Shown: positions 49,994 through 52,432 of the stretch, one piece after another | Position numbering within the stretch: the stretch's first letter is position 1 | Layout: each line of letters starts with the position of its first letter | Origin: Eledone cirrhosa | Lineage: Eukaryota | NCBI GenBank assembly: GCA_964016885.1 | Contig: OZ024742.1 | Location: forward strand, 121,954,001-122,018,000 | Length of the DNA stretch: 64,000 nucleotides | Direction of reading: 5' to 3' | The notes under the pieces: generated by a model | Seen by the model: the letters and a program-made list of their open reading frames with translations, nothing else | The model's database searches: none | Told to the model about the DNA's origin: nothing | Position numbers and translations under genes: made by a program

Positions 49994-50409
49994 TATATAT
50001 ATATATATGTATATATATATATATATATATATATATATATATATATATATATATATATACATATATATATATATATATATATATATATATATATATACAT
50101 ATATATATACATATATATATATATATATATATATATATATATATATATATATATATATATATATACATACATATATATAAATGTATATATATATATATTT
50201 ATATATATATATATATATACATATATATATATTATATATATATACATATATATATATACATATATATATATATATATATACATATACATAAATATATACA
50301 TATACACACACACACACACACACACACACACAGACACACATATATATATATATATATATATATATATATATATATATATATATATATATATATATATATA
50401 TATATATAT
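49994..50409. repeat. (TA)n/(CA)n compound microsatellite
   Basis: Direct reading. Confidence 0.95.
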
Positions 50410-50617
50410 AAGTATGTACACGTACATACATATATGTATACCGACGTACAGTAGTATGTATATATATATATATACATACATGCACACATATATATATGCA
50501 CGTATGGATTCACCGAACATTTATTATAATGCTCGGTGTGTTTGTAAACAAACATCCCGTATTAAGCTGTAGTGTCTAGCAACCACCGTTGCTCGTTTGT
50601 TCAACACTGACAAAGGA

Positions 50618-50660
50618 ACGCTGTACTAGTTTCAAGCTTGTTAGCTATCGTCAGCAACGT
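50618..50660 (-). ncRNA. Minimal type I hammerhead ribozyme
   Basis: Reverse complement of 51239-51281. Confidence 0.78.
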
Positions 50661-51238
50661 ATACCTTCCTGCCAGATTGTTGAACGTATATACTTACCTT
50701 ATGCATATTAACGGCTGAGTAGCCCAATTTGCATATCGAGTGGGTTAATCGGCCGGGTGCACCGAAAACGATAAACGGAAAAAATGAAACGATATTTCAT
50801 TTCCCACTCTTAGTACGGCTGTTACTTAGATATAAGTATGTACACGTACATACATATATGTATACCGATGTACAGTAGTATGTATATATATATATATATA
50901 TACATACATGCACACATATATATATGCACGTATGGATTCACCGAACATTATAATAAATGTTCGGTGAATCCATACGTGCATATATATATGTGTGCATGTA
51001 TGTATATATATATATACATACTACTGTACGTCGGTATACATATATGTATGTACGTGTACATACTTATATTTAAGTAACAGCCGTACTAAGAGTGGGAAAT
51101 GAAATATCGTTTCATTTTTTCCGCTTATCGTTTTCGGTGCACGCAGCCGATTAACCCACTCGATATGCAAATTGGGCTACTCAGCCGTTAATATGCATAA
51201 GGTAAGTATATACGTTCAACAATCTGGCAGGAAGGTAT

Positions 51239-51281
51239 ACGTTGCTGACGATAGCTAACAAGCTTGAAACTAGTACAGCGT
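51239..51281 (+). ncRNA. Minimal type I hammerhead ribozyme
   Basis: ACGTTG-CTGACGA-t-AGCT-aaca-AGCT-t-GAAA-CTAG-TA-CAGCGT; stem I fully paired. Confidence 0.78.
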
Positions 51282-52432
51282 TCCTTTGTCAGTGTTGAAC
51301 AAACGAGCAACGGTGGTTGCTAGACACTACGGCTTAATACGGGATGTTTGTTTACAAACACACCGATCATTATAATAAATGTTCGGTGAATCCATACGTG
51401 CATATATATATGTGTGCATGTATGTATATATATATATATATATACATACTACTGTACGTCGGTATACATATATGTATGTACGTGTACATACTTATATTTA
51501 AGTAACATCCGTACTAAGAGTGGGAAATGAAATATTGTTTCATTTTTTCCGTTTATATATATATAAATGGAAAAGAATGAAACGAAATTTCATTTCTCAC
51601 TCTTAGTGCGGCTGATACTTAAATGTAAGTATGTATACGTACATACAAATATGTATACAGTGTTGAACAAACAGGCTACGATGGTTGCCGAACACTCTAC
51701 GGCGTAATTCGGGCTGTTTCTTTACAAACAAATCGAATATTATAATAAATGTTCGGTAAACCCATACATACATATATATATATGTGTGCATGTATGTATA
51801 TATATACATACTACTGTACGTCTGTATATATATATATGTATGTACGTATACATACTCACATTTAAGTATCAGCCGTACTAAGATTGAGAAATGAAATTTC
51901 GTTTCATTCTTTTCCATTTATCGTTTTCGGTACTCCCGGCCGACTAACTCACTCGATATGCAAATTAGTCTGCTCAGCCATTAATATGCATAAGGAAAGT
52001 ATAGACTTTGAAACGTTCAATCATGGCAGGAAGGTATACGATGCTGACGATAGCTAAATGTCAGTGTTGAACAAAAAGGCGACGATGGTTGCCGACCACT
52101 GTACAGCGTAATTCGGGCTGTTTGTTTACAAACAAACCGAATATTATAATAAATGTTTGGTAAACCCATACGTACAGATATATATGTGTGCATGTATGTA
52201 TATATATATACATACTACTGTACGTCTGTATACATATATGTATGTACGTATACATACTTAGATTTATATATATATATATATATATATATATATAAATGTA
52301 AGTATGTATACGTATACGTATATGTAAGTGTGAATGAGAAATGAAAAAAGCTTTATAGTAATATATGTTGTATATGTATGGTATACATTATAGCCTGCAT
52401 AATGAATTACTGAAGCTCTATAGCCTACGTCT

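Follow-up and report, generated by a model that had tools for sequence, protein, structure and literature searches.

A palindromic retrozyme insertion in Eledone cirrhosa and a one-of-each end rule shared with Penelope-like elements

The window analysed here, a stretch of 64,000 nucleotides of the Eledone cirrhosa genome, contains a non-coding, retrozyme-like repeat arranged as a palindrome, whose arms end at the same unit positions as those of other insertions. How does such a repeat come to be inserted as two opposed arms, and why are its ends so constant? We consider it probable that the palindrome is a head-to-head insertion of a 422-nt retrozyme, produced when a dimer of Penelope-like element (PLE) machinery copied circular or multimeric RNA from both ends of a cut (TA)n tract, starting at unit positions 219 and 275. 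The range 50408-52345, which the original prediction described as a palindrome of 1.1 kb, does contain one (50409-51556, with 528 of 536 aligned bases identical between the arms, plus TA-length indels), but it also holds a second, adjoining insertion and a piece of about 28 nt after 52293, all of the same repeat family (Table 1). The first insertion is young and the second (51563-52260) is older. A third insertion of the family lies at 6135-7053. The centre of the palindrome is a hairpin that the unit already contains. Target site duplications are unreadable, the flanks being (TA)n. It is scarcely credible that the palindrome is a long-read fold-back or an assembly artefact. Short-read contigs do not bridge the junction, as an artefact would have it (this is uninformative in so repetitive a family), whereas the two arms are told apart by 8 sites and by their TA lengths and carry different patterned ends, and dozens of loci, as well as four other families, show the same architecture.

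Table 1. Insertions of the 422-nt retrozyme in the window, with their parts and flanks, and loci of the sister family. S and L are 3' ends at unit positions 219 and 275, respectively.
Feature	Position	Strand	Basis or remark
TA-rich microsatellite, left flank, likely target	49994..50408	.	sequence
Insertion 1 (subfamily A), left arm, 1.3 units, 3' end at site 219 (S, CATACTTA)	50409..50966	-	arm mapping
Type I hammerhead motif, left arm of insertion 1	50618..50660	-	motif
Head-to-head junction: 28-nt self-complementary unit hairpin (unit positions 86-113) as microhomology	50939..50966	.	
Insertion 1, right arm, 3' end at site 275 (L, CCGTTTAT); exceeds left arm by 56 nt	50939..51556	+	
Type I hammerhead motif, right arm of insertion 1; predicted cut after 51275	51239..51281	+	motif, covariation
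Tail between start sites: S hairpin, helix strand GCCGTA, hairpin AAATGAAA/TTTCATT	51493..51556	+	
Insertion 2 (older subfamily C), left arm, 3' end at site 275 (L)	51563..51660	-	
Insertion 2, right arm, 3' end at site 219 (S)	51658..52260	+	
TA tract, right flank	52261..52292	.	sequence
Short unit fragment around site 219	52293..52320	-	
Insertion 3 (subfamily B), left arm, 3' end at site 275 (L)	6135..6320	-	
Insertion 3, right arm, hammerheads at 6333 and 6777, 3' end at site 219 (S)	6319..7053	+	
Sister 310-nt retrozyme loci	L157, L151, L161-L197		tail 26-34 nt

The length of the unit, about 422 nt, was taken from 99 cleavage-to-cleavage monomers (406-615 nt, mode 422). Genome-wide counts, which cover the 3.0-Gb assembly of 1,796 contigs, gave 23,990 matches to an exact 34-nt core pattern and 0 to the reversed control. 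The repeat is present in high copy number, is dispersed over many chromosomes without LTRs, and forms tandem arrays of up to 11 units, each unit carrying a hammerhead. It falls into four subfamilies that resemble one another at 83-91%: three of these (A, B and D) are young, with a spread of about 2%, and the fourth, C, is older. The predicted circular fold of the unit is stable (z of -5.6 to -7.6 over 25 shuffles each, values that TA palindromes inflate). No credible ORF was found in the unit, no ORF-bearing form turned up among 13 loci chosen by S ends, and a search for a helper with a degenerate ribozyme pattern recovered just 11 mutated copies. Unit positions 300-345 were considered as a coding remnant and rejected, as frames and stops vary among subfamilies. 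Near-identical pieces also occur in contigs from four runs whose labels name other organisms, two at low depth, too little to base a distribution on.

The tandem non-coding units, the hammerhead in each and the number of exact cores bear out the identification of this repeat as a non-LTR retrozyme, a known class, with predicted ribozyme activity. Metazoan non-LTR retrozymes (Cervera and de la Pena 2020; Li, Clavereau and Pollet 2026) are likewise built from non-coding units, repeated in tandem and a few hundred bases long, each with one type I hammerhead, and have low GC and a stable predicted circular fold. A sister retrozyme in the same genome has a 310-nt unit, is very young, and forms arrays of up to about 28 units; its 7,187 exact cores were counted by pattern, DNA similarity search being unhelpful, probably because its words were too common.

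The motif at 51239 comprises stem I (ACGTTG/CAGCGT), CTGACGA, a 3-bp stem II, GAAA and a palindromic stem III (ACTAGT), in the type I order with CUGANGA, GAAA and NUH all present. Stem I has 6 bp, and at the base of stem II a U.U takes the place of the absent G10.1-C11.1 pair, a known natural variant (HHR_Amex2); this U.U and a 2-bp helix III resemble those of the axolotl ribozyme (PMC7229834). Palindromic stem III and hammerhead dimers are treated in PMC4209133. Hammerhead models were absent from the listed 150 of 197 Rfam matches in the window, which were mostly hairpin miRNA models scoring under their cut-offs, and a scan of 51200-51320 gave no hammerhead match at E<=10. With no hammerhead match in these scans, the putative ribozyme identity draws on the motif and on covariation.

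For covariation, the original prediction relied on stem I, and the sequences it cited are correct: ACGGTG at 6333, ACGTTG at 51239 and ACGATG at 52038, with CATCGT or CAGCGT after the cleavage triplet. One pair does swap from G.U to U.G. Across 279 hammerheads this pair is U.G in 103, G.U in 90, A-U in 29 and an unpaired U.U in 8, and because it follows the subfamily tree it represents one double change. In the copy at 52038 the GAAA, stem III and the 3' strand of stem I are missing, so that it is silent on pairing; its intact relatives, with ACGATG/CATCGT, account for 29 of the 279.

Purifying selection on individual genomic copies was not seen when the catalytic core was compared with the rest in subfamilies A (9/796 changed vs 245/17366 elsewhere, p=0.64) and B (5/459 vs 141/11007), and private mutations of copies preserve pairing in just 29-40% of cases. 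As copies decay neutrally, an R-scape analysis of all of them would mostly measure phylogeny. The fold was compared between subfamilies using 90 confident pairs predicted from A alone. Two-sided changes kept 4 of these pairs in B, 3 in C and 7 in D, while 8, 4 and 8 were broken, in part where a helix has shifted. Going from B to D, double change kept 6 pairs and none was broken. Some double changes are long-range (pairs 3-389, 55-230, 59-226 and 242-303). When the sister family was added to A-D, 7 of 11 hammerhead pairs had changed on both sides around an invariant core (slid controls 0-1), in a comparison of six sequences where most changes trace to one family split. Selection on the fold, first claimed from the stem I pair, appears to be visible in these other helices and against the sister family, and is supported between source lineages rather than in single copies. 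Template switching could create the local hairpin changes, the long-range ones less easily.

Arm ends were mapped in unit positions counted from the predicted cleavage site. Of the 134 merged loci, 90 were chosen for their resemblance to the three copies in the window and the others were mainly the first pattern matches on contig 1, in positional order. This yielded 88 two-armed insertions (head-to-head by parsing) and 62 one-armed insertions, with 4 at locus edges left out. The 3' ends fall at 219 or 275 in 200 of 238 cases overall and in 159 of 170 flanked by TA, within two intervals that together span 11% of the unit; the endpoints are not random. Genome-wide, the end-plus-TA patterns occur 2,130 and 5,817 times, compared with 0 and 1 for the reversed controls. 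In the window, CATACTTA ends lie at 7053 (+), 50409 (-) and 52260 (+) and CC(A/G)TTTAT ends at 6135 (-), 51556 (+) and 51563 (-), within 1-2 nt of where the original prediction had placed them.

All three window insertions combine one S with one L end. The same is true of 54 of the 59 insertions with both ends classifiable (p ~1e-11, with one duplicate among them), and in all five exceptions at least one end proved on inspection to be a truncation or an internal TA run. Under strict calling 44 of 46 head-to-head insertions were S+L, as were 21 of 21 in the positional sample. Separate end lists, paired within 4 kb, gave 10 S+L, 0 S+S and 0 L+L pairs, and a single S+S pair at 5.8 kb. An end was unclassifiable in 29 of the 88 two-armed insertions, and 62 of all 150 look one-armed. 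Neighbouring hammerhead cores on opposite strands within 1 kb were in -/+ order in 12 of 12 cases. The sister retrozyme obeys the rule in 9 of 9 classifiable insertions out of 10, and a mini-palindrome family, judged by eye, in 3 of 3. These mini-palindromes (L086, L089, L132) are about 200 nt long, have one short and one long end each, and their arms join just upstream of the hammerhead core.

A small hairpin has site S in its loop, and a larger one is followed directly by site L. Each shares 2-5 nt with TA, in keeping with the proposal that (TA)n primes at AU-rich sites, but the longer TA tracts of the unit are rarely ends, and target complementarity therefore does not choose the sites. The original prediction had recognised two end types while missing their one-of-each pairing, along with the published PLE tails and start sites.

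The arms also carry information on the template. Where the arms measure at least 150 nt, 56 of 60 insertions have two arms from one subfamily. Minority variants are common to both arms more often within insertions (0.45, 0.56) than between them (0.13, 0.11; 0/2000 permutations), which could also reflect a dominant source locus or gene conversion. The 5' ends are scattered, with 2 of 176 no more than 8 nt from the cleavage site, where 6.7 would be expected, and both arms cross that site in 32 of 54 insertions, where sampling forces one arm alone to do so. Because the arms pass the ribozyme site and their 5' ends are scattered, a linear ribozyme-cut monomer cannot be the template, which is likely a circular or multimeric RNA. 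Among 12 tandem arrays, five have essentially nothing but private variants, as expected from one circle, and three are mosaic. The period-2 or period-3 variant patterns of L146, L159, L016 and L158 point either to multimeric circles or to duplication after insertion. Arms stopping at the other start site, as in a collision, showed no excess (4/70 vs 2.5 expected, p=0.24), and L-arm 5' ends at unit positions 9-25 showed a weak one (7/70, p=0.02 uncorrected).

The shared variants would also be explained by a fold-back, in which priming occurs once, the cDNA (or an antisense template) primes itself, and the endonuclease later trims the second end at the other site; such a course has been suggested for PLEs of rotifers and others. 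Self-priming was proposed in PMC3846280 and endonuclease-mediated tail resolution in PMC8557442, and symmetric centres, with matching junction positions, are found in 10 of 88 insertions compared with about 3 expected, insertion 1 included. We nonetheless judge a fold-back improbable. Its second arm must sit inside the first and start beside its end, whereas arm lengths are uncorrelated (rho -0.22), the S arm being longer in 32 of 54 insertions and shorter in 22, and the junctions join unrelated unit positions in 78 of 88 insertions, with an overlap of 1-9 nt in 42 of 88; both observations argue against it. Nor can a fold-back yield chimeras of two families, which are described below, and in vitro both ends are RT start sites (PMC11167929). 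The perfect centre in the window is a special case, its homology coming from the unit hairpin.

A protein search identified a young PLE, N, with many near-identical copies in this genome. Its 4,682-bp unit has frames of 409 aa and 775 aa that encode an RT (Pfam RVT_1, below the cut-off), a CX4CX2C motif in the 775-aa frame and GIY-YIG, the combination (RT, CX2-5CxxC, C-terminal GIY-YIG) that defines the Neptune/Nematis type in PMC8557442. At L254 (2232-5695) the two frames overlap instead of forming one ORF. PLE N also targets (TA)n, and its two ends, 68 nt apart, were counted 2,960 and 6,792 times. Two counts gave one-of-each ends for 13 of 14 and for 52 of 54 insertions; the exceptions look like neighbours that have merged or a duplication, and in a further 24 an end could not be classified. 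A related element, PLE I, follows the rule in 4 of 4. Unlike retrozyme arms, PLE N arms cluster at a single 5' point (55/156). A hammerhead variant with U3/A8 replacing C3/G8 lies at unit position ~1037-1080 of PLE N (L254), and the arms traverse it to the 5' point about 70 nt upstream; in PLE I the hammerhead stems are kept by compensatory change, and GCAA stands for GAAA.

No extended homology was found between the retrozyme unit and the pLTR of PLE N. About 25 nt at site 275 resembles the upstream sites of PLEs N and I, and the best windows of units A, B and C against those sites end at 274-290. This resemblance is partly compositional (shuffle p 0.009-0.13), weak in subfamily D and absent in the sister family. 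The order of the two sites seems, from these alignments, to be swapped between retrozyme and PLE. Three head-to-head chimeras link the families directly: L020 and L137 join retrozyme 275 to N 1220 with 4-5 nt of microhomology, and in L132 the upstream site of I is joined to a 219-like retrozyme end that stops a few bases before S. That 3 of 3 combine complementary site types is suggestive, the chance being about 1 in 8. Two further candidates were rejected, L093 as a TA-mediated neighbour and L038 for wrong geometry, and 160 loci taken at PLE N ends held no new retrozyme/PLE chimera. The shared end rule, the site resemblance and the three chimeras uphold the earlier suggestion, and support the view that the retrozyme would be mobilised in trans by PLE machinery.

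The asymmetry between the two ends could have more than one seat. The PLE dimer itself may be asymmetric, with alpha and beta RNA sites, one for each half, in which case any complete insertion would be a head-to-head pair bearing both end types; retrozymes would carry both sites in swapped order, and halves loaded with different RNAs would give rise to chimeras. We advance this only tentatively. A single RNA might instead present both sites to a symmetric dimer, the chimeras being later deletions between neighbours, and this we regard as slightly less probable still; it differs from our preferred explanation of the palindrome only in the seat of asymmetry. One RNA would account for variants shared between arms and for the match of the L159 minus arm to units of its plus arm, and the chimeras are rare, with L374 showing that a secondary deletion can imitate one. 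It fits less well with the complementary site types in all three chimeras and the microhomology in L020 and L137, and the seemingly swapped site order favours site types over fixed spacing.

Spread of the repeat as a satellite at the DNA level, by unequal crossover and template switching in TA, would make the ends a product of slippage and the hammerhead a relic. Copies do decay neutrally, the periodic patterns in L146, L159 and L016 fit duplication after insertion, and quasi-palindrome repair can imitate compensation within local hairpins. Even so, this reading leaves unexplained the dispersed copies, the -/+ polarity, the fixed ends that ignore internal TA, the one-of-each pairing shared with PLEs and the long-range double changes, and we consider it very improbable.

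Under the explanation that we prefer, of priming at both DNA ends by PLE machinery, the retrozyme would be transcribed, cleave itself and form circles. A dimer of the PLE reverse transcriptase/endonuclease would then cut both strands of a (TA)n tract, and cDNA would be primed at both DNA ends, at RNA site 219 on one and 275 on the other. Each cDNA would extend a random length, often more than one turn around the circular or multimeric RNA, before the two 5' ends were joined through short microhomology; in 50409-51556, use of the 28-nt unit hairpin as that homology would have left a near-perfect palindrome. L1 twin priming is comparable, as both target strands prime cDNA and the arms are joined by microhomology to give a 5' inversion. 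In that process the second primer site is variable and the arms scarcely overlap, whereas here the starts are fixed and overlap is free.

Several elements of this scheme have precedents. Retrozymes have been treated as PLE-dependent circles (PMC7229834; bioRxiv 10.64898/2026.07.22.740005), and PLEs have been proposed as helper of the metazoan non-LTR forms. The available text of PMC7229834 and of the 2026 preprint does not describe the head-to-head arms, fixed start sites and (TA)n targeting found here, and 'inverted' has 0 occurrences in that of PMC7229834. Of the Xenopus families, 24 of 57 match TEs, almost all PLEs, whereas we found no extended pLTR homology to the PLEs compared here. Weighing against our scheme, just one frog retrozyme dimer out of nine cleaved in vitro (bioRxiv 10.64898/2026.07.22.740005). 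In the text available for an octopus repeat annotation (PMC13282606), 'ribozyme' and 'retrozyme' are absent.

For PLEs, earlier work has already described inverted arms, a tail on one side and two sites at which the RT starts. EN+ PLEs have inverted arms and often a tail at one end (PMC8557442, PMC3846280), and those of Neptune/Nematis type share with the 422-nt retrozyme partial tandems, an inverted 5'-truncated arm, a one-end tail, a (TA)n preference and a hammerhead near the ends. Tails measure 56 nt in the 422-nt retrozyme, 26-34 in its sister and 68 in PLE N, compared with 30-40 in published EN+ PLEs. The retrozyme differs from these in lacking an ORF and a pile-up at the RNA 5' end; in their published descriptions, as far as available, the tail is optional or often at one end, while the one-of-each arrangement is near-obligate here. 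In an anole PLE (Frangieh et al. 2024, PMC11167929) both strands are cut and extended and a dimer is predicted. Two internal RT start sites flank the tail of this Anolis Poseidon, PAc, and its reaction resembles the retrozyme insertions in using an AT-rich target and copying through the ribozyme site. In the available text of PMC11167929, however, no strand difference in start site was seen and no site pairing is reported, and the PAc sites lie inside an ORF of an autonomous substrate, in contrast to the non-coding retrozyme. Our literature search, with older subscription papers outside its scope, found strict one-of-each pairing unreported for PLEs and this architecture unreported for retrozymes.

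A second hammerhead family with long stems II and III occupies 52555-53900, with cores at 52706 (-) and 53124 (+). It too lies head-to-head, with arms of unequal length, between TA tracts, and a further end of it at 52383-52497 faces it over a TA run. At 54229-59851 lies a large PLE-like insertion, also head-to-head, in which the RT and GIY-YIG-like frames are broken and the arms are 96% alike; it carries a hammerhead-like motif at 54289 (-). The hairpin at 43361-43428, which had miRNA scores below the Rfam cut-offs, is the joined 5' ends of a PLE N mini-palindrome. Coding fragments at 41265-42810, which from their motifs we take to be Penelope/Poseidon-like, are split by a long TA tract, and another hammerhead motif lies at about 43769. 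A broken non-LTR retrotransposon with endonuclease- and RT-like frames (30700-35900) is presumably L1/Tx1-like. Pfam gave nothing above the cut-off for seven PLE-like or other frames of the window. The flanks of L001-L160 contain many more hammerhead families, nearly all beside TA tracts and nested in one another.

As far as the cited literature goes, the origin of the inverted repeats and tails of PLEs and the enzyme that moves animal retrozymes are both open questions. The element class described here is known; what its insertions do is to quantify and sharpen a half-known PLE signature and to indicate a testable helper. The E. cirrhosa genome holds tens of thousands of young insertions that obey a near-strict two-end rule, and pairs an intact, young RT-endonuclease with a 422-nt candidate substrate whose start sites are known to a few bases, so both questions become testable. 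If true, the asymmetric dimer would account for two PLE features that have long lacked an explanation, the tail and the inverted pLTR, and would identify a live helper for an animal retrozyme.
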